Assembly (NCBI GenBank): GCA_038063515.1
Contig: JBBTUY010000004.1
Coordinates: forward strand, 35,717-99,716
Reading direction: 5' to 3'
From: Patescibacteria group bacterium
GTDB taxonomy: Bacteria; Patescibacteriota; Minisyncoccia; Phycocordibacterales; UBA9973
Length of the DNA stretch: 64,000 bases
The notes beneath the pieces are model-generated. The model was not told the origin of the DNA. It saw nothing but the letters and a program-made list of their open reading frames with translations, and searched no databases. Shown one piece after another: positions 1,999 to 54,323 of this stretch. Numbering within the stretch: position 1 is the stretch's first letter; each line of letters starts with the position of its first letter. The position numbers and the translations under genes were made by a program.

Positions 1999-4900
1999 TT
2001 ACTTCTTAGCTTTAAAACCTGTACCAGCTGGTATGAGTCTTCCGATGATAACATTTTCTTTTAGACCTCGAAGAGAATCTACTCCTCCCTTCACTGCATT
2101 TTCTATGAGCACTCTGTTTGTGTTTTGGAATGATGCAGCAGAAAGCCAGCTCTTTGTACGTAGTGAAACTTCAGTAATACCGAGTACTACGATCTCAGCC
2201 TTTGCTTCCTTGCCACCGAGTGTATTTACTCGAGAATTTTCTTCGATAAATGTAGTGTGCTCTACTATGTCTCCATTGGAGAAGTTAGTCTCACCTGCCT
2301 CCTTTATCTTTCTTCGTGAGAACATTTGACGAACGATGATCTCAGTGTGCTTTCTAGAAATAGACGCATTTTGAAGTTCGTACACTTTATTTATTTCACG
2401 AATGATGTATTTCTCCACGAGTTCTTTATTACCAAGCTTAAACATCTCTGTAATGTCTGCTGATCCGTCTGTCAAAAGCTGTCCCATTTTTACTTGGTCG
2501 CCTACTTTAACTATCGGCATTCTATGGAAAGACACAGCGTACTCTACTTCATGCTTGTCACCACTTGCCTTACCATCTGTAATATCAGATAAAACTTTTA
2601 TGATTTTTTCTTTATCATCTTTATTCTTAACTTCTATCACCTCACCGTCAGTCATAGATATAGTTGCAGGATTTTTAGGAACTCGTCTTTCAAATATTTC
2701 TTCAATACGTGGAAGACCTGTCGTGATGTCAGTACCCGCGACACCTCCAGCATGGAAAGTTCGAAGCGTAAGCTGTGTTCCCGGCTCACCAATAGCTTGT
2801 GCTGCGATGATACCTACTGCCTCACCGAGATCAACCAATTTGTTTCTTCCGAGATCTAGACCGTAACAGTTAACACAAAGACCGTGAACAGTTCTACATG
2901 TAAGTGGAGATCGTACGAAAACTTCCGTAAATCCTGCGTCGTCTATGACTTGACTGTCTTCTTTAGTTACGAGAAATCCTTTCTTGTAGGCCACATTGCC
3001 ATCTTTGTCTTTAAGGTCACCAGCAAGTATTCTTCCTCGAATATTCTTTGCAAGAGATATCTCAATTCCTGAAATATTTTCTGCTGTAATTATTTTTCCT
3101 TCTTTTGTCCCACAGTCTTCTTCGGTGATGACCACGTCTTGCGCAACGTCCACAAGTCTTCGTGTAAGGTATCCGGACTTTGCAGTGTTAAGAGCCGTAT
3201 CTGAGGCACCTTTTCTCGCACCATGAGTAGTGATGAAATATTCAATAGGAGACAAACCTTCTTGATAAGAAGATATGATTGGGAATTCAAGAGTTTTACC
3301 TTGGTTGTTTTGAATAAGACCTTTCATTCCTATCATCTGAGATAGAGATGTCATAGTACCTCTCGCTTTAGAAGTAAACAAGTCGTAAGTAGAACCATTT
3401 TTATCAAGTGTATTGGGAAGAACTTTTTCTAATTCCTTTTTAGCACTTGTCCAAATTTCTATAATTTTCTGATATTTTTCTGAGTTAGAAAGAAGTCCTT
3501 CACTCCACTGAGAAATAATTTCTTCTTCTAATTTTCTTCCTTTAGCAATGATTGCTGGCTTCTCAGGTGAAACTTTAACATTGTCCACACCCCATGTAGT
3601 ACCAGAAACTGTAGAGTACTTAAATCCGAATTCCTTTATCTTGTCGAGTATTGGAGGTGTATTGTCCACTCCATAACGCATGATGAGCTCGTCTAAAAGA
3701 GATGAAAGTCTCTCTTGAGTCATTTCATCATCAACATAAGGGAAATCACTTGGCAGGATGCTGTTAAAAAGAAGTTTACCTACAGAAGTATCAAACATAC
3801 CGCCATTAAATTTCGCGTAACGCAATGAATCTGTAGCGAGAACTTTAATCTTTGCACGTAGACCTACAATTCCATAGTCATGAGAACTTATAGCAATGTT
3901 TGGACTAGAGAAATATTTTCCTTCACCTGTTTCTCCATCCACTGATTTTGTCATCCAGTATGCACCGAGCACCATGTCCATGCGAGGGTTTACGATAGGC
4001 TCACCATTTTGTGGTTTTAATAGATTCTTGTTTGAAGCCATTAATTCCTTAGCTTCATTTTGTGCTTCTTCAAGAAGTGGCACATAGACTGCCATCTGGT
4101 CTCCATCGAAGTCAGCATTGAAAGCCTGACATACGAGTGGGTGTACTTGAATGGCATTACCTTCGATTAGTATTGGATTAAAAGCCTGAATACCAAGACG
4201 GTGCAAAGTAGGAGCGCGGTTTAATAGAACGTACTTACCTTCTATCACCTCTTCAAGCATTTCCCAAACTACCGCTTCACGCTCTTCTATCAATTTATTT
4301 GCTCCACGAATGTTGAATGCGAGCTCCGCTTGTAAAATCTTAGAAATAACAAATGGACGGAAAAGCTCAAGAGCCATGTGCTTTGGCAATCCACATTGAT
4401 TAAGTTTTAAATCAGGACCGACGACGATCACAGAACGTGCAGAATAGTCTACACGCTTACCGAGCAAATTCTGACGGAAAAGTCCTTGTTTTGATTTTAG
4501 GTTATCAGAGAGAGACTTAAGTGGACGCTTTTGTGACTGACTCATAGCAGCAGAATCATTTTGCTTTGCTATAGAGTTATCAATGAGTGCATCTACTGCC
4601 TCCTGAATGATTCTTTTCTCATTTCGGAGGATCACGTCTGGAGCATTTATTTCCTTTAATTTCTTTAGACGATTATTTCTGTTTATAACTCTACGATATA
4701 AGTCGTTAAGATCACTTGTGGCATGTCTTCCACCATCGAGTGCAACCATCGGACGAAGCACAGGAGGTATAACAGGTATAACAGTTAAAAACATCCATTC
4801 AGGACGAATCTTTGCATAGATCATCGCACGAATAAGAGAAAGTCTTTTTTGTAATTTATCTTTCTCGACGATGCTGGCCTTTTCTAGCATAGATTCTGTG

Positions 4901-5598
4901 TGAACTTTTAGTTTATTTAGATCAAGATTTTTAAATATTGAGTAGATTGCTTCCGCACCAATGTTGGCTTCAAAGCATGTGCCGTACTTCAAAGAATAGT
5001 GGTGAAAAGAAATTTCATTTAAAACTTTACCTTCATATATCTCTCCTATTTCTTTCTTAGTAATAGAAAGGAGGTTCTTTAATTTCTCTCTTGTGTCATC
5101 ATCAACAGCGTTCTTTAATTTAGATTTGTATTCTTTATCCAAATTGTCGATTATACTTTGCTTTTCTTCTTCATGAACCTTTACCACTATATAGCCAGCA
5201 AAATATATAACCTTTTCAAGGTCAGTGACAGAGATGTTCAGAAGTATACTCATACGAGAAGGTACACCACGGAGGAACCATATGTGTGACACAGGAGTAG
5301 CAAGCTCTATGTGACCCATACGTTCACGGCGCACTATAGAGCGAGTAACTTCAACTCCACATTTTTCACAGATTATATCTTTGTAACGAATACGACGATA
5401 CTTTCCACAGTAACATTCATAATCCTTTTCAGGTCCGAATATTTTCTCGTCAAAGAGACCGCCACGCTCACTTCTACTTGTACGGTAGTTTATTGTTTCT
5501 GGCTTTGTAACCTCACCAAAAGACCATTCTTGTATTTGCTCTGGTGAAGCAAGTCTTAATGTTATTTGATCAAATTCAGTTGTATTTAGAGTTTTCAT
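1999..5598 (-). CDS. rpoC: DNA-directed RNA polymerase subunit beta-prime
   Basis: 1199 aa; catalytic [14 protein letters not shown] motif; zinc-binding CxxC...CxxC N-terminus. Confidence 0.95.
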
Positions 5599-10274: not shown

Positions 10275-10318
10275 AAATATATTATATCATACTATTTACC
10301 TGATGTACAATTAAAATA

Positions 10319-10353
10319 GCCGGTAATCCTCGAGGATTACCGGCTATTTTTTG
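10319..10353. terminator. Bidirectional intrinsic terminator: perfect 15-bp stem agccggtaatcctcg/cgaggattaccggct flanked by A/T runs.
   Basis: Perfect palindrome followed by TTTTTT (plus strand) and a T-rich tract on the minus strand. Lies between the lipoprotein gene and hicB. Confidence 0.7.
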
Positions 10354-10394
10354 AGGGTTATAGGCCCCTCAGCCTGTGTGGGAGAAAAACAAAC

Positions 10395-10913
10395 CTAGAA
10401 GGTTTTGTTCTTCTCCCAAATGATTTCGGTCGAAACAAAGCCCGACCCGATAAATTCACCGATATATTGGATCTCGGTGACCTCGCCGTCAACCAACATG
10501 ACCCGAACTCTCTTAGGATCTAATGTTGGAATCAAAGAGTGGAGGCGCCGACCCTCCTTGATTTCAGGGGCGGTTTTCACCCCCCCTTTACTCGGCTCCG
10601 AATTATAAGCCGAATGGCGAGAGTAGACGCTACACGGCTTGCTCTCGCCAGGCAAATCAAGGCCGATTACGAAGACGAATTCGAAACACTCCCCGCCATC
10701 GCAGGCAGGGAATGCAATGAAATTTTCTTCGGGAATGCTCACGCCGATTTTGGTCGGCGTGACCTCAGTCACACCCGGCGTGGGAGTCGGTGTCGCCACA
10801 TACCTCGTTGCAGACGAGGTATGTGGCCCCTGAGGCGCGACTCCCTCGCACCCAAGGAAAACCAAAGTCGAAAAAACGAAAACGAACGCAAAAAAAATCT
10901 TTCGCATAACCAT
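10395..10913 (-). CDS. Secreted lipoprotein (signal peptide plus lipobox FLGC). Compositionally foreign, about 50% GC against a one-third-GC background.
   Basis: MVMRKIFFAFVFVFSTLVFLGCEG... lipobox. Pro/Thr-rich linker (TPTPTPGVTEVTPT). CG dinucleotides are dense only in this gene. Confidence 0.6.
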   Translation of the reverse strand: MVMRKIFFAFVFVFSTLVFLGCEGVAPQGPHTSSATRYVATPTPTPGVTEVTPTKIGVSIPEENFIAFPACDGGECFEFVFVIGLDLPGESKPCSVYSRHSAYNSEPSKGGVKTAPEIKEGRRLHSLIPTLDPKRVRVMLVDGEVTEIQYIGEFIGSGFVSTEIIWEKNKTF

Positions 10914-10994
10914 TCCTTTTCAAAATCTGCAGTTGTTAAATGCACACGCCGATACAAACTGGCGTATGCTTGACTATCTAAAATCAATAAAAGC

Positions 10995-11018
10995 ATATAT
11001 ATATATATATATATATAT
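10995..11018. repeat. (AT)12 dinucleotide microsatellite
   Basis: 24 nt of perfect atatat... between the KH-gene terminator and the lipoprotein gene start. Confidence 0.95.
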
Positions 11019-11033
11019 TGTCAATAGCAACAC

Positions 11034-11067
11034 AAAAAAAACGCTTACAAAATAAGCGTTTTTTTTG
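11034..11067. terminator. Bidirectional intrinsic terminator (A8-acgctta-caaaa-taagcgt-T8)
   Basis: 7-bp stem flanked by an A-run and a T-run. Lies 24 nt downstream of the KH-protein stop on the minus strand. Confidence 0.65.
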
Positions 11068-11090
11068 TGTTTGAGTATTTTTTATTTAAA

Positions 11091-15803: not shown

Positions 15804-16982
15804 ATGGAAAATTCAAAGCCTCACTCATTGTGGATGGTTTGTACTATTTTGATAGTGGTGTTAGTAGTGCACGGTGCATGGACTAGAGATAAATTAATAT
15901 ATACGAGAATTTTAAATAAGGCACAAATACTACTTTCCACAAAAGAAGACACAACTAAAGAAGATGCTGCTATCCTTGCGAGCATAATAAACAATACTGA
16001 CGACAAGAGAAACACAGCACCCACCACAGAAGTACATAAAACAAAAGACACGATACACATAGGCTTTGTGGGTGACATAATTCCTGGTATTGATGCATAT
16101 CCTAATATGTTTTCAGATATTACTTCATACACAGAGAAGCCTGAGGTAATGATAGCTAACTTTGAGGGAGCAGCGACTGATTCTATATTTTCAAAATGTA
16201 AAATAGATTCTAAGAATTGTTTTTCATTTAATGGAAATGATATTTTCTTAAAATTACTACGAGACGCCTCATTTGATGTGTTAAATGTAGCCAATAACCA
16301 CTTTAATGATTACCGAGAAGTTGGACAAATAGACACAATAAGAAACATACGAGAAATAGGGCTTATACCAAGTGGCATGAAAGGTGAAGTAACTTATATA
16401 ACAAAAAATAATATCAAGATAAGTCTGGTAGGCTTCTCTAATTATTCATGGACAAATGATTTAAATAGAACTAATGAGGTGGCAAATTTAATACAAGAAG
16501 CAGATAAAGATGCGGACATTGTGGTGGTAGTATTCCATGGTGGCGGAGAAGGTGCTAGCTATTCTCATACACCAAGAGAAGTGGAATGGTATTTAGGAGA
16601 AAACAGAGGGGATCTTCGAGCCTTTGCACACAACGCCATAGACTCTGGAGCCGACCTAGTACTAGGTTCTGGTCCTCATGTTCTTCGTGGCATAGAATGG
16701 TATGAAAACAAGTTAATTGCTTACTCACTCGGAAACTTTGCTATGGCAGATGGAATACTAACCACAGGCACATTAAAAAATTCAGGGATGCTAAATGTAA
16801 CATTAGATAAACATGGCTCTATAATTTCTGGAAACATAGAATCTTTTGAAATAGATAGATACGGCATACCCCGCCCTGACTTAAGTAATACTGCAATTAC
16901 AATAATAAACAATCTCTCACAAAGTGACTTCGGAGAGCAAGGAGTAAAATTAAATCCTCTCGGAGAAATTAAAATAAAATAA
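15804..16982 (+). CDS. capA: CapA/PgsA-family capsule-synthesis-like metallophosphoesterase (second paralog). N-terminal signal anchor.
   Basis: IANFEGAATD, ANNHFNDY, VVVFHGGGEGAS, GSGPHVLRGIEWYENKLIAYSLGNF blocks. 4 nt after the preceding fusion gene. Confidence 0.7.
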   Translation: MENSKPHSLWMVCTILIVVLVVHGAWTRDKLIYTRILNKAQILLSTKEDTTKEDAAILASIINNTDDKRNTAPTTEVHKTKDTIHIGFVGDIIPGIDAYPNMFSDITSYTEKPEVMIANFEGAATDSIFSKCKIDSKNCFSFNGNDIFLKLLRDASFDVLNVANNHFNDYREVGQIDTIRNIREIGLIPSGMKGEVTYITKNNIKISLVGFSNYSWTNDLNRTNEVANLIQEADKDADIVVVVFHGGGEGASYSHTPREVEWYLGENRGDLRAFAHNAIDSGADLVLGSGPHVLRGIEWYENKLIAYSLGNFAMADGILTTGTLKNSGMLNVTLDKHGSIISGNIESFEIDRYGIPRPDLSNTAITIINNLSQSDFGEQGVKLNPLGEIKIK

Positions 16983-16996
16983 ATATTATTTCGTTA

Positions 16997-17025
16997 TAGC
17001 TTGTCAAACATCGGGTGTTTGACAA
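16997..17025. repeat. Left 29-nt inverted repeat (tagcttgtcaaacatcgggtgtttgacaa). It is itself a 10-bp-stem hairpin.
   Basis: Its reverse complement recurs at 17335..17363 with one mismatch, and the loops are reverse complements of each other (tcggg vs cccga). Confidence 0.8.
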
Positions 17026-17059
17026 TTGAGAATTCAAGACAAGATATTAAAAATTAAAA

Positions 17060-17120
17060 TTTAGAAACCCCTTAAAATAATAACAGTGCCGAGTGTGTTC
17101 TTACACACTCGGCACTGTTA
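17060..17120 (-). terminator. Very strong intrinsic terminator: perfect 17-bp stem taacagtgccgagtgtg/cacactcggcactgtta, 6-nt loop, T-rich tail on the minus strand.
   Basis: Perfect palindrome. Downstream (minus orientation) reads TTATTTTAAGGGGTTTCTAAATTTTAATTTTT. Confidence 0.7.
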
Positions 17121-17131
17121 CCTCCTGAAAA

Positions 17132-17278
17132 CTATGGTTCCAGGAGGTTCAAGTGTAGCATCGTGGCTTTTACAAGCCACGATGCTACAAACAAGGCAAC
17201 TGTCACAAGGACAATTACCATAACTATCAATACTATAGGATGCAATACGACTACATCCTTATCTTCTTCTTTTTTCAT
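17132..17278 (-). CDS. Small (48 aa) single-TM peptide MKKEEDKDVVVLHPIVLIVMVIVLVTVALFVASWLVKATMLHLNLLEP with a perfect Shine-Dalgarno sequence. Lies inside the IR-bounded module.
   Basis: GAGGAGG-5nt-ATG. A perfect 15-bp hairpin (gtagcatcgtggctt/aagccacgatgctac) is embedded in the coding region. The stop sits in the loop of a CCTCCTG/CAGGAGG hairpin. Internal start chosen over the 71-aa track ORF. Confidence 0.4.
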   Translation of the reverse strand: MKKEEDKDVVVLHPIVLIVMVIVLVTVALFVASWLVKATMLHLNLLEP

Positions 17279-17334
17279 AAGTACCTCCTCTAAAAAAATA
17301 CAGTATTCAAAAAAAAAAAGCAACCTTATGCCAT

Positions 17335-17363
17335 GCTTGTCAAACACCCGATGTTTAACAAGC
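17335..17363. repeat. Right 29-nt inverted repeat (gcttgtcaaacacccgatgtttaacaagc). Overlaps the last codons and stop of smc.
   Basis: Reverse complement of the 16997..17025 repeat with 1 mismatch. Confidence 0.8.
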
Positions 17364-19594
17364 TACTTTGCAATTTGAGTGGCTTCGTCAAACTTTACAG
17401 ATAGAAGTTTTGATGCGCCATTACTAGCTATTGTTACACCATACAAAACTCCAGCACGAGACATAGTCTCTCTGTTGTGAGTCACGACGATAAGCTGTGA
17501 ATGCTTTGAGAGCTTCTCTATCATGTCCCCATATTTACGAGAGTTTGCTTCATCGAGTGCGGCATCTGTCTCATCTAATACGAGGAATGGTGGAGGATTT
17601 ACTTGTGACATAGCGAAAAGTATGGCGATAGAAGTGAGTGACCTCTCGCCACCTGAGAGTGCATGAAGTTCTTTTACTTTTTTATGAGGCAGTGATACGT
17701 CTATCTCTATCCCCTGCTCGAATACAAGCTCTTCATCTGTCTCAAGCAAAAATTCCCCATCTTCATCTTTTTTCTTTCTTTTATTTTCCACCACGACTGA
17801 AAGGTGTCCATGTCCACCACCAAACATGAGAGAGAAGAATTCTTGAAATTCTACATTTATTTTCTTGATACCTTCTTTGAATTCTATGTCTATCTTTTCT
17901 TTCAAATCTTTAATAAGAACATTCAAAGACTCTATACTCTGTGTGAGATCTTCTATCTCTTTTTGTAAAAATTCATCTCTTTCCGTAACCTCTTTAAATT
18001 CTTTCATTATATCAGACGCATTTCCAAGCCCCGCATCTTCGAGTTTGATTTTAATACGCTCTATACGTCTCTTTAATTCATCTTGAGAGCCCTGAGTAAA
18101 ATCCGGATCTTTTACAACAAAATCTTTGTATGATAATATCTCTCTACCTATGAGCACTGCCCCTTCTTTGATCTCGTTTTCAAAAGACTCAGCTCTACTG
18201 TGTAAATTTTCTTCTTTTAGATTTAAAATTCCGAGAGCTGAGGACAACTCCTGATATTTAACTTTAAATTTAAATTTCTCTTTTTCGAGATCTCGAAGTG
18301 CTTCCATCTCTGTATTGATTTCATTTTTAACATTTTCAACACTCTCTCTAAATTCTTTTTCTTTTCTTTCTAGGCCTTCTATTTCTTTTAAGATTTGTGT
18401 TTGCGTAGCTTGCAAAGCTTCTAATTCAAGGTTGATTTTCTCTTCTGTTTGTTCCTTTTTATTTTTATTAAGGGATTGTAGTATGTTTTTTATCCTGTCC
18501 AAGATAGGCTTGATCTCATCTATGGTATTTTTAGAAATTGCTTCATCTATACCGAAGTTTATCTCCTCGATAAAGACTTCCATCTCTCTTTGAGTTAAAG
18601 CCACCACTTCAGTACTCACTTCCTTTCTGCGAGTTTCTCCTTCTATCATTCCTTCTATGCGACCAAGCTTTCTGCTTATCTCAGCTTTTAAGTTACGGAT
18701 TTCATTTAATTTATTTTCTATCTCTCGTAATTCTTCAATTTTCTTATTCCCTTTTGTTGGAGCTTCCTCTTCGTCTGATATTTTTCCTGACACATCTTCG
18801 AGCTCTTTTAGGACTTTATGCTTTTCGAATGTAAGATTAGACTTTTCTTTCTCTAAGAAAATACTTTCTTTTTTAAGATACTCCATATATAGCTGTCCCA
18901 GCTCTATCTGCATATCTTTTGCTCTTTCAAACTTCTCTACCTGTCTCTTTAAAAAGTTAAGGTGGGGCGCATTTTCTCTGCGAAGTATCCCCACTTCTTT
19001 CATGTTTGTTTCGGTACGCTCAAGCTTCTTTTCAGATTCTTTTATTTTATATTGATAAACTTTGAGACCAAGTGCATCTTCTATCATCTCACGCCTCTCA
19101 CGTGAATTCGCATTTAGTATTCTGTCCGCTTCACCTTGAGAGATAATGTGGTGCCCTGAGGAGCCAATGTTAAGTGAAGACAGAAGATTGTGAATATCTT
19201 TAAGACGAACTTCGCTCCCATTTAAAATATATTTATTAAGTCCATCCGCATACACTTCACGTGAAATACAGATAGTATCATAATTCAAATCTATGTTTTC
19301 TCCATTTTCATTTGAAAGTTTAAATATCTTATCTGAGTTATCGAAATATATTTTTACCTGCGCGCTCGTACCTTTTGATAAACTTTTTGATCCTTTAAAG
19401 ATAAGATCGAGTCCAGACTTACCACGCATGGATTTCATAGACTGCTCTCCAAGGACGTATCTAAATGCTTCCACGACATTAGACTTCCCAGAACCATTCG
19501 GCCCCACAACACAAGTCACAGGGCTACCAAAATCTAAAACACTTTTTTGTGCAAAAGATTTAAATCCGTTTATTTCAAGTGTCTTGAGACGCAT
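17363..19594 (-). CDS. smc: SMC-family chromosome-condensation ATPase, unusually short (743 aa). No recognisable hinge domain.
   Basis: N-terminal Walker A GPNGSGKSN plus FKSF. C-terminal LSGGERSLTSIA signature and LVLDETDAALD Walker B. Long E/K-rich coiled coil between them. rnc-smc synteny supports SMC rather than RecN/SbcC. Confidence 0.75.
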   Translation of the reverse strand: MRLKTLEINGFKSFAQKSVLDFGSPVTCVVGPNGSGKSNVVEAFRYVLGEQSMKSMRGKSGLDLIFKGSKSLSKGTSAQVKIYFDNSDKIFKLSNENGENIDLNYDTICISREVYADGLNKYILNGSEVRLKDIHNLLSSLNIGSSGHHIISQGEADRILNANSRERREMIEDALGLKVYQYKIKESEKKLERTETNMKEVGILRRENAPHLNFLKRQVEKFERAKDMQIELGQLYMEYLKKESIFLEKEKSNLTFEKHKVLKELEDVSGKISDEEEAPTKGNKKIEELREIENKLNEIRNLKAEISRKLGRIEGMIEGETRRKEVSTEVVALTQREMEVFIEEINFGIDEAISKNTIDEIKPILDRIKNILQSLNKNKKEQTEEKINLELEALQATQTQILKEIEGLERKEKEFRESVENVKNEINTEMEALRDLEKEKFKFKVKYQELSSALGILNLKEENLHSRAESFENEIKEGAVLIGREILSYKDFVVKDPDFTQGSQDELKRRIERIKIKLEDAGLGNASDIMKEFKEVTERDEFLQKEIEDLTQSIESLNVLIKDLKEKIDIEFKEGIKKINVEFQEFFSLMFGGGHGHLSVVVENKRKKKDEDGEFLLETDEELVFEQGIEIDVSLPHKKVKELHALSGGERSLTSIAILFAMSQVNPPPFLVLDETDAALDEANSRKYGDMIEKLSKHSQLIVVTHNRETMSRAGVLYGVTIASNGASKLLSVKFDEATQIAK

Positions 19595-53543: not shown

Positions 53544-53570
53544 CACTAGCAAGAACGGTTCTTACTAGTG
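53544..53570. repeat. REP-like imperfect palindrome cactagcaagaacggttcttactagtg at the 3' end of the RAYT gene
   Basis: Same core (ctagcaagaacggttcttgctag) recurs at 54284..54312. Confidence 0.75.
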
Positions 53571-54257
53571 TTTGCTTTGATCTTCATCATTTTCAAAAGA
53601 AAGATAACTATCTATAAAATCTTCAAAATCATTGTCGTAAGAAAAATATTCCGGAAAAGCTTCTTTATTTAAAATATTACTTTCACATCTATCTATCCCT
53701 GTATAGTCAATGTAACTAGAATACTTATACTTTTTTAAAAAATCTTGCCAAGTATTTGGATTTTGTTTATCGATCAGTTCTTGCCATCCAGAAAATTGTA
53801 AATCCAATGGATTCAAAGCTATATATCCAAAGAGGTGTTTTAAATATATATCTTCAGGGATATGTTTTGATTTAAATAATCCTCCAAATAAAGATCCTGT
53901 TCTTTGATATTTTATATTAAAATACATTGAATAACCGACACCTAGTTTTCTCATAAATTTAGTAATTCCACCTTCAACCTCTTCTTTAAGAAGAATATGA
54001 AAATGATTCGGCATGAGACACCATGCACCAATAGACACAAGTGCATTACTCCTTTTGTAAGAAAATATTTCTTCATAACTTTTATGTAAAATATTTATAA
54101 GATTATCGAGCCTTATAGATTCATCGGAATTAGCCACATAAAGTAACATGATGAAACGATTGTAATCGTGAGTGGATTTAAAAATAACCCTCTTGTCTAT
54201 CCCCCTATTATAAATATGATAAAATTCTCCTGGAACAAAAATATCTTTTCTTAACAT
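53565..54257 (-). CDS. REP-associated tyrosine transposase (RAYT) / IS200-IS605-family Y1 HuH transposase
   Basis: HuH motif MPNHFHILL, catalytic Tyr in YIALNP, EFYHIYNRG N-terminal block. Start chosen at ATG 54257 (MLRKDIF...); the track ORF uses an upstream TTG. Confidence 0.75.
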   Translation of the reverse strand: MLRKDIFVPGEFYHIYNRGIDKRVIFKSTHDYNRFIMLLYVANSDESIRLDNLINILHKSYEEIFSYKRSNALVSIGAWCLMPNHFHILLKEEVEGGITKFMRKLGVGYSMYFNIKYQRTGSLFGGLFKSKHIPEDIYLKHLFGYIALNPLDLQFSGWQELIDKQNPNTWQDFLKKYKYSSYIDYTGIDRCESNILNKEAFPEYFSYDNDFEDFIDSYLSFENDEDQSKH

Positions 54258-54283
54258 AAGAAAGAGTTTACCAAATTCGGGCT

Positions 54284-54323
54284 CCTCTAGCAAGAACGGT
54301 TCTTGCTAGAGGATTGCTAGAGG
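54284..54323. repeat. REP-like palindrome cctctagcaagaacggttcttgctagagg plus a partial tandem copy (attgctagagg)
   Basis: 14-bp arms. Lies between the pilM stop and the RAYT start. Confidence 0.75.

Follow-up and report, generated by a model that had tools for sequence, protein, structure and literature searches.

A probable REP doublet of a RAYT-like system between convergent capA-like and SMC genes of a Patescibacteria genome

Layout of the segment between the capA-like and SMC genes

The segment described here lies in a 64-kb stretch of DNA (64,000 nucleotides of contig JBBTUY010000004.1, referred to below as the window) from a Patescibacteria group bacterium, at a point where a capA-like gene and a gene for a short SMC-like ATPase converge (Table 1). 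It is bounded by two inverted repeats, which we assign below to a family of repetitive extragenic palindromes (REPs) associated with REP-associated tyrosine transposases (RAYTs). The original prediction, made from the sequence alone, had described these as near-identical 29-nt repeats that are each a hairpin, and this was confirmed; the repeat finder called arms of 29 nt that are 97% complementary, with 1 mismatch and a spacer of 311 nt. Each arm is itself a hairpin of the form TTGTCAAACA-N5-TGTTTGACAA, a pattern with 2 matches in the 64 kb and 0 in 100 shuffles. The hairpin core of the left copy (17001-17025; TTGTCAAACAT-CGG-GTGTTTGACAA) has TAGC directly 5' and begins 18 nt past the capA-like stop codon. 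The right copy, read on the minus strand, is GTAGC-TTGTTAAACAT-CGG-GTGTTTGACAA-GC. The predicted overlap of this copy with the end of the SMC gene was also found, as the stop codon TAG forms the outermost triplet of the arm (17363-17365, CTA on the plus strand).

The interior between the repeats carries further hairpins. What had been described as a 17-bp GC-rich stem terminator is a perfect stem of 18 bp that the terminator scan did not call, and the stem embedded in coding sequence is likewise perfect, with 16 bp in place of 15 bp and a T-run on neither strand. The hairpin with a CCTCCTG/CAGGAGG core and a stop codon in its loop was recovered as predicted, and so was the minus-strand open reading frame (ORF) for a 48-aa peptide preceded by GGAGG-5nt-ATG. 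The window has 10 perfect hairpins with stems of 11 bp or more, where shuffles have 0.15, and 2 of the 10 fall within these 370 bp; long hairpins are therefore a habit of this genome, and most of those in the window are terminators with an A-run, a hairpin, and a T-run.

Table 1. Coordinates of the features of the segment, of its neighbors, and of REP-A copies within genes of other loci (window positions unless a locus is named)
Feature	Position	Strand	Description
capA-like flanking gene (PGA_cap)	15804-16982	+	392 aa
Left REP-A arm	16997-17025	+	29-nt inverted repeat; repeat finder, pattern scan, and family alignment
Promoter-like site TTGACA-18 nt-GATATT	17019-17048	+	Consensus match at 10/12 positions
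Interior between REP-A copies	17026-17336		311 bp, without transposase
Perfect 18-bp hairpin, 4-nt loop	17081-17098/17103-17120	-	Terminator-like on this strand; repeat finder, folding
Imperfect hairpin, CCTCCTG/CAGGAGG core	17113-17155		78% complementary; ORF stop in loop
48-aa ORF	17132-17278	-	Stop codon 17132-17134, ATG 17276-17278
Perfect 16-bp hairpin, 4-nt loop	17154-17169/17174-17189		In frame in 48-aa ORF, codons VASWLVKATMLH
GGAGG	17284-17288	-	5 nt 5' of the ATG of the 48-aa ORF
Right REP-A arm	17337-17365	-	29-nt inverted repeat; repeat finder and pattern scan
Short SMC-like ATPase gene (SMC_N)	17363-19594	-	743 aa
RAYT-like Y1/HUH gene	53565-54257	-
REP-B palindromes CTAGCAAGAAC-G-GTTCTTGCTAG	53546-53568 and 54283-54313		Flank the RAYT-like gene
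In-frame REP-A in housekeeping genes	L006, L008, L019, L036, L039, L042, L044, L052
In-frame REP-A in RAYT genes	L033:6917-6941, L034:6022-6046, L021:1264-1288, L049:6247-6271, L045:5407-5431

The REP-A hairpins and RAYT-like genes of Patescibacteria

The two repeats are members of a hairpin family, here named REP-A, in which a 3-nt loop closes a stem of 11-13 bp (TTGTYAAACAY...RTGTTTRACAA). Across 185,579 species genomes (GTDB, one per species), a scan with the pattern TTGTYAAACA-N5-TGTTTRACAA returned 49 stretches, about 41 of which were titled Patescibacteria, and several metagenome-assembled genomes (MAGs) had more than one copy. Taxon labels of these loci are record titles only; they include Paceibacterota/Parcubacteria, Giovannoni-, Kaiser-, Taylor-, Yanofsky-, and Nomurabacteria, as well as many MAGs titled Saccharibacteria, and the 22-nt core recurs in MAGs labelled as different classes of the candidate phyla radiation (CPR). 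The additional copies of the 29-nt repeat for which a search had been suggested were thus found in other Patescibacteria, which carry the same hairpin, and not within about 84 kb of this genome: the 64-kb window held no further REP-A beyond the two copies of the locus, allowing up to 6 mismatches, and the 10 kb past each window end held neither REP-A nor a further RAYT. Elsewhere, solo REP-A copies or doublets are scattered, mostly just 3' of stop codons (1-20 nt past them for solo copies in L009, L010, L025, L033, L037, and L048) and sometimes in frame in housekeeping genes. The loop often differs between the REP-A copies of one MAG.

Alignment of the family revealed that the N5 "loop" of the search pattern is partly stem and that the actual unit pairs over 11 bp around a loop of 3 nt. 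Pair 11/15, which was unconstrained by the search, is C-G in 30, U-A in 11, U-G in 3, and something else in 2 of the 46 copies, and pair 5/21 is C-G in 25 copies and U-A in 19. Overall, 91.5% of cells were paired across the 46 copies, and two of the pairs show compensatory replacement of C-G by U-A. None of 500 shuffles reached the observed covariation, which argues that the pairing itself is under selection, as would be the case for a hairpin that acts in single-strand DNA or RNA.

Genes for RAYT-like proteins of about 220 aa have a REP-A copy at either end in L022, L045, L021, L033, L034, and L088. In L022 an inverted pair surrounds a 220-aa ORF, and L045 and L033 are similar. A RAYT-like gene was located within 500 nt of 11 of 44 REP-A instances, and RAYT homologs also adjoin REP-A in L034, L049, L021, L015, and L037. 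The linked ORFs match Pfam Y1_Tnp (IS200-like transposase) above cut-off, and their best NCBIfam model is REP_Tyr_transpos ("REP-associated tyrosine transposase"), with 27-38 bits against a cut-off of 80. Both the HUH motif (NHFH) and the Tyr of YIHLNP are invariant in an alignment of 11 RAYT-like proteins. The RAYT-like proteins of L045 and L021 share 66.5% identity, even though the two MAGs bear different class labels. Most REP-A-flanked RAYT genes themselves also contain REP-A or a remnant of it, in frame at a variable loop N-terminal to the HUH motif (Table 1); only degenerate REP-A remnants are left at this position in L022, L006, and L088.

Copies within other genes point to mobility of the hairpin. 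In-frame REP-A, usually read VKHxVF(D/N), was found in MurB, TGT, MnmA, RecG, a GT4 glycosyltransferase, a methyltransferase, and CofD, with the gene identities confirmed by Pfam (loci in Table 1). The TGT copies come from two genomes and occupy different sites, the RecG copy is read in the other frame, and alignment of the two TGT proteins shows that the one of L052 has an insertion of 10 codons where REP-A lies. Because a stop codon blocks one reading frame of the hairpin, it is tolerated in the two others only. Other phyla are known to have REPs within genes, and a survey of GTAG-tagged REPs (Di Nocera et al. 2013, PMC3733652) describes them in frame in repair and tRNA-modification genes; the intragenic REP-A copies are familiar REP behavior.

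The window has a RAYT-like gene of its own, flanked by a different palindrome, REP-B, which in about 84 kb of this genome occurs only around that gene and as one doubtful remnant. This RAYT-like gene is the same kind of system and not the cognate of the locus repeats. Other palindromes accompany other RAYT genes, namely REP-C (CTACGGAGGC-N3-GCCTCCGTAG) in L055 and L057 and REP-E (ATGTCAAGGGTAACCCTTGACAT) in L037. The hallmark of RAYTs is that each gene is flanked by a palindrome of its own (PMC5581495; PMC3733652), and the pairing of different RAYT lineages with different palindromes, being typical of them, was counted in favor of a REP/RAYT reading. The AlphaFold model of the window protein (pLDDT 84) had as its best PDB fold match the complex of the E. 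coli RAYT with a REP hairpin (4ER8, E = 5.5e-4); the TnpA proteins of IS608 and ISDra2 came next. Single-sequence PDB searches with the RAYT-like proteins gave no match, whereas profile and fold searches did, including 2XM3, 2VIC, and 2A6M. At E <= 1e-10 the window protein has 2,610 homologs, nearly all from Patescibacteria, some of which JGI names "REP element-mobilizing transposase RayT"; the closest are up to 82% identical, compared with 72% for SMC.

Several further features were observed at REP-A loci. Tandem direct repeats of the half-site GTGTTTGACAA, three at 11-nt spacing, stand beside a full hairpin upstream of a RAYT gene at L034:6249-6310 and L040:4930-4973; they have an iteron-like look. 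At L033:6218-6740, a DHFR-like gene beside thyA is bracketed by two REP-A copies, with a RAYT gene directly after, and the stop codon of the DHFR-like gene is in the loop of the downstream REP-A hairpin. Additionally, a sequence 3 nt from REP-A at L029:455-537 scores as a type III hammerhead ribozyme (RF00008) with 45.9 bits and E = 6e-9, slightly short of the gathering score. The arrangement of hammerhead and REP-A followed by a long hairpin and a gene led by a Shine-Dalgarno (SD) motif is conserved in three Paceibacterota MAGs (L029:455-537, L020 at about 3930-4014, and L040 at about 4949-5040), and the REP-A stem shows compensatory changes at these three loci.

The SMC/capA junction and the interior of the segment

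We compared 46 loci with SMC relatives, the nearest of which are 72% identical. In the two closest of these with capA downstream, L060 (SMC 72% identical) and L062, only 2 nt separate the stop codons of SMC and the convergent capA-like gene, versus 380 nt here, which makes the 380-nt segment, on this comparison, an insertion relative to its closest relatives. The slot 3' of SMC is variable. It holds hairpin-flanked RAYT genes in L055 and L057 (REP-C) and in L088, where the hairpins are REP-A-like (ATGTCCAACAT-CCG-ATGTTGGACAT upstream and CCCCC-TGTCAAACAC-CCG-GTGTTTGACA-GGGGG downstream), a doublet that resembles REP-B in L082, L083, and L096 (SMC 45% identical), and unrelated genes in L054 and L056. 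In all of these loci except the last two, the slot hairpins begin within a few nt of the SMC stop codon, and the 3' end of SMC is an insertion hot spot. None of the orthologous SMC/capA junctions among the fetched SMC loci had the element or conservation of the 48-aa ORF or the hairpins. According to PMC3733652, a REP located between two convergent ORFs is <20 bp away from either 3' end, and GTAG termini often supply a TAG stop codon; the GTAG-C that precedes the SMC-side hairpin and ends SMC, together with the position near stop codons, matches this published behavior.

A separate observation concerns the slot of L082, L083, and L096, where two REP-B-like palindromes (ACAAGAACCGTTCTTAGT / ACTAAGAACGGTTCTTGT) about 14-60 nt past the SMC stop codon form a hairpin with a 21-bp stem that resembles a REP doublet forming a hairpin (REPIN).

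Outside the hairpins, the 311-bp interior had no match in the window or in any fetched locus (blastn, tblastx), and no second copy was found in phage or plasmid records. Its G+C content is 0.357, compared with 0.369 for the window. A decayed RAYT gene was considered as its source and rejected, as RAYT proteins and cassettes (tblastn, tblastx) matched only hairpin-encoded residues.

The 48-aa peptide (MKKEEDKDVVVLHPIVLIVMVIVLVTVALFVASWLVKATMLHLNLLEP) has a charged N-terminus followed by about 28 hydrophobic residues, the shape of a protein with a single transmembrane (TM) segment. It had no family match in Pfam, NCBIfam, or PHROGs, no homolog but itself at E <= 0.001 in a phmmer search against 1.84 billion representatives, and no homologs in JGI metagenomes or IMG/VR; the exact peptide was found at this locus only. 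By these searches the ORF is an orphan, and homology misses on short hydrophobic peptides are weak evidence of absence. The codon usage of the ORF has a log-likelihood ratio of 0.141 per codon, which lies at the 13th percentile of real-gene windows and is reached by 4.7% of spurious ORFs. An identical SMC protein, labelled Patescibacteria by NCBI, is encoded on Hainich groundwater metagenome contigs (ENA ERZ1292624 and others), and because all six Hainich contigs are identical across 550 nt at the locus, a dN/dS test by population variation was uninformative.

Evidence from the ribosome-binding site depends on the habits of the host. The original prediction had called strong ribosome-binding sites rare, which was an understatement: among the 50 window ORFs of at least 100 aa, none has even a 4-mer SD core (GGAG, GAGG, or AGGA at -20 to -3). 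There are about 11 GGAGG-N4-9-ATG sites on both strands of the window, none of them at the start of a long gene. Since 50 of 50 genes show no SD use, the GGAGG before the 48-aa ORF is weak evidence of translation. We regard it as possible, while leaning against it, that the ORF yields a translated membrane peptide, and treat it as cargo of uncertain status. Many gene starts in the window have a TATAAT-like box 5-12 nt 5' of the ATG, which suggests leaderless mRNAs or mRNAs with very short leaders.

As RNA, the locus region folds far better than shuffles (z = -15), and minimum-free-energy folding of the entire segment predicts pairing between its two arms, in a REPIN-like manner. The 18-bp hairpin (17081-17120) has a folding energy of -34.6 kcal/mol (z = -10) and is followed on the minus strand by UUAUUUUAA, a U-rich tail. 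The right REP-A folds at -16.1 kcal/mol on the minus strand (SMC sense; 13-bp stem with two G-U pairs) versus -10.5 on the plus strand, and the left REP-A at -11.6 kcal/mol on the plus strand (capA sense) versus -10.5 on the minus strand, an asymmetry that is due to U-G pairs. No U-run directly follows either copy. Rfam searches of the region at E <= 10 and of the whole window at the gathering threshold gave only chance-level matches to microRNAs and small RNAs over the hairpins. The TTGACA of the promoter-like site lies within the left REP-A, and the site points into the interior, antisense to the ORF. A REP-A half also gives a -35 box 5' of the RAYT genes in L034 (followed by TATAAT) and L088, which is suggestive of a REP-A arm serving as a -35 box.

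Origin of the segment and rival explanations

From these results we consider it probable, at roughly 0.72, that the locus repeats are two REP-A copies of a Patescibacteria RAYT-like system and that the segment is a RAYT-less REP doublet inserted between convergent genes. The segment is thus read as the footprint of a mobile element and not as a demonstrated toxin or RNA gene. In IS608, of the IS200/IS605 family, a Y1 enzyme recognizes a hairpin on single-stranded DNA, cleaves it, and rejoins it. REP-A hairpins would likewise be single-strand DNA substrates that a RAYT-like enzyme cuts and rejoins at the hairpin foot, by analogy with E. coli TnpA-REP as described in PMC3479197. The segment may have come in whole, as a single REP-cargo-REP unit, or it may have been a RAYT cassette whose gene was subsequently lost or exchanged; either origin is favored because the two copies share their loop, wobble pattern, and TAGC flank. 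It is probably immobile today, as no cognate RAYT is visible. Its main effect would probably be at the RNA level, with the REP-A hairpins forming the 3' ends of the capA and SMC transcripts, a role that we propose because each REP-A is most stable when folded on the strand that is sense for its neighboring gene end. The 18-bp hairpin would then probably be a minus-strand terminator for the SMC and small-ORF transcripts.

The closest known counterparts are the REP/REPIN-RAYT systems of Proteobacteria (E. coli TnpA-REP, 4ER8; Pseudomonas REPINs; PMC3116915, PMC5581495, PMC3479197), which likewise have a short palindrome flanking a Y1/HUH gene of about 160-230 aa. In both, the palindrome is specific to the gene lineage, inverted doublets are able to pair mutually, and copies lie between convergent genes near stop codons, and the REP-bound E. 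coli enzyme is also the best fold match. As expected of a REP, REP-A is a palindrome in the 20-40-nt range with a conserved stem-loop, and it flanks a RAYT-like gene in other genomes, though not at the window locus.

Several points weigh against this assignment. Classical REPs number tens to hundreds per genome, and REP families are usually species- or genus-specific. REP-A and REP-B are, by contrast, low-copy systems in this genome; the 64-kb window and its 20 kb of flank hold two REP-A copies, both at this locus, so that the high extragenic copy number of REPs is lacking, and the REP-A core is found under different CPR class labels. No cognate RAYT was seen in about 84 kb, where the sole RAYT-like gene has a different flanking palindrome. 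Many REP-A RAYT genes differ from classical ones in holding an in-frame REP copy, and the CPR proteins fall below the NCBIfam RAYT equivalog cut-off (about 30 versus 80 bits). The orientation of flanking REP-A copies varies, being inverted in L022 and L033 and direct in L045, L021, and L088. A GTAG tag is not enriched in the family as a whole (3 of 46 copies versus a background of 3.7%), and unlike in GTAG-tagged REPs, (G/A)TAGC directly 5' of the stem occurs only in the two window copies, as GTAGC and ATAGC. The spacer of 311 nt, with its own hairpins, is much longer than that of a typical REPIN, which in Pseudomonas has 71 bp between REP 16-mers (PMC3116915). The tandem half-sites, like the perfect TTGACA of the arm, could also belong to a promoter or a site of protein binding, and the gene-like codon usage means that "inert relic" may undersell the interior. 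Finally, we infer REP-A/RAYT activity, transposition included, by comparison throughout.

Two other classes of mobile element resemble the segment in part. Elements of the IS200/IS605 insertion sequence (IS) family (IS608, ISDra2), and the palindrome-associated transposable elements (PATEs) and MITEs (miniature transposable elements with inverted repeats) derived from them, share the Y1_Tnp superfamily and hairpins at both ends, and a transposase-less element bounded by end hairpins is a known non-autonomous IS200/IS605 form. However, IS ends are two unlike subterminal imperfect hairpins on one strand, whereas here they form an inverted pair that is nearly identical; the segment is single copy in the window, the fetched loci, and the plasmid and phage records, unlike the multicopy ISs and PATEs; and a C-terminal extension is present in the CPR proteins, which exceed the IS enzymes by about 70-90 aa. 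Arms like the terminal inverted repeats (TIRs) of classical DDE MITEs are present, but the segment is single copy, the enzymes are Y1 and not DDE, and no clear direct duplication of a target site flanks the arms. The suggestion of a MITE-like insertion therefore stands as to the insertion relative to relatives and the hairpin ends of a mobile element, and falls as to a multicopy element (one locus in about 84 kb), a matched interior, and a TIR/DDE enzyme, the linked enzyme being Y1/HUH and RAYT-like. The REP-A family also recalls the Rickettsia palindromic elements, which are in-frame selfish palindromes in housekeeping genes of reduced-genome, host-dependent bacteria. To our knowledge, those elements are about 100-150 bp long and have no linked transposase, whereas REP-A is about 25-30 nt (about 10 codons) and RAYT-linked, and the window pair itself is extragenic.

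The 48-aa ORF invites a different explanation, in which a genuine cassette with a small gene makes up the interior, possibly a type I toxin-antitoxin (TA) locus, with an SD-driven peptide, a structured mRNA, and an antisense RNA from TTGACA-18-GATATT, and the repeats are its boundary or vehicle. The charged N-terminus and hydrophobic stretch of the peptide, the GGAGG 5 nt before its ATG (one of about 11 such sites in the window), codon usage in the real-gene range, the strong hairpin with a U-rich tail past the ORF stop, the promoter-like site antisense to the ORF, and the extreme RNA structure all fit such a cassette, and a single-TM peptide with a strong SD, a structured mRNA, and a possible antisense promoter recalls Hok/Sok, Fst, and TxpA. 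We nevertheless think it unlikely. The peptide has no toxin-family homology, repeat copies, or conservation, being matched in none of the databases searched, confined to this locus, and absent at orthologous loci; the host apparently does not use SD motifs; the in-frame perfect 16-bp palindrome resembles an inserted element more than a selected protein; and the antisense promoter is a consensus match only. The earlier proposal of a type I TA locus thus found no support past the peptide shape, and that of a structured noncoding RNA found neither an Rfam match nor conservation at orthologous loci.

Slightly less probable still are two independent solo REP-A insertions past the SMC and capA stop codons, around a pre-existing small native gene region. 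Solo copies are common 1-20 nt past stop codons, the REP-A pair of L033 brackets an ordinary DHFR gene by thyA, and the SMC slot is variable, with unrelated genes in L054 and L056. On the other hand, the two copies share their loop, orientation-specific wobble, and TAGC flank (29 nt with 1 mismatch), while REP-A copies within a MAG often differ in loop, and neither an intervening SMC-capA gene in the closest relatives nor a homolog of the interior in any relative was seen. We give very little credence to the palindromes being host elements without mobile origin, either operator or -35 palindromes of a dimeric DNA-binding protein or convergent terminators, even though a perfect TTGACA lies in the arm, well-spaced -10 boxes follow 5' of RAYT genes in L034 (TATAAT) and L088, half-sites recur in tandem at 11-nt spacing in L034 and L040, and both copies are at gene 3' ends. 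Such elements would not account for in-frame copies at non-homologous sites in eight housekeeping genes, stem pairs that change on both sides with U-G intermediates, the tight association with Y1 transposase genes, the lack of a U-run directly after either copy, or the absence of the element from orthologous SMC/capA junctions. The original prediction had allowed that repeats found only here, and unconserved at orthologous loci, would make the segment just a pair of convergent terminators. Within this genome that is indeed what was found, yet the recurrence of the hairpin beside transposase genes in other Patescibacteria means that the conclusion cannot be drawn. A DNA-uptake sequence was also rejected as far too rare at 2 copies in 64 kb, as was a parS or CtsR-like operator, which the half-site resembles, by the in-frame intragenic copies and compensatory stem changes.

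Returning to the RAYT-less REP doublet, a bolder form of this reading is a long shot. REP-A pairs in general would be RAYT-mobilized cassettes, and the segment a non-autonomous REP-cargo-REP unit that moved between Patescibacteria lineages with a foreign SD-driven membrane peptide, possibly an addiction or exclusion toxin, and its own terminator. REP-A would have been kept across CPR classes, even inside essential and transposase genes, by a conserved Y1 enzyme or by an RNA-level host function.

REP-A would appear, from its conserved 22-nt core and its tie to a large RAYT-like clade, to be an undescribed REP-type family. No publication linking REP or RAYT with Patescibacteria was found in the literature searched, a survey of HUH endonucleases does not mention Patescibacteria phyla, and Patescibacteria are not among the phyla reported in the available part of PMC3733652. 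For annotation, this hairpin-dense block is better labelled as the footprint of a single-strand-DNA transposase, with a toxin-antitoxin or noncoding RNA label to be used only if transcript data warrant it. Patescibacteria genomes are tiny and streamlined, and the persistence of such elements in them is relevant to the question of how DNA that is selfish or domesticated outlasts genome reduction. As markers, the hairpins can also serve to type strains and to locate hot spots of insertion, of which the SMC 3' end is one.

Other structured elements were noted elsewhere in the window. Three long perfect hairpins (17, 14, and 19 bp) occur within 760 bp at 10313-11071. The 14-bp hairpin (10795-10827) is inside a 172-aa ORF without a Pfam match, with a HicA-like gene close by; the called length of this ORF differs between two Hainich contigs (75 and 172 aa), a difference suggestive of a frameshift polymorphism. 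On the plus strand, 61481-61695 matches the group I intron model RF00028 with 63.9 bits, which exceeds the gathering score; ARAGORN reported no tRNA at this site.

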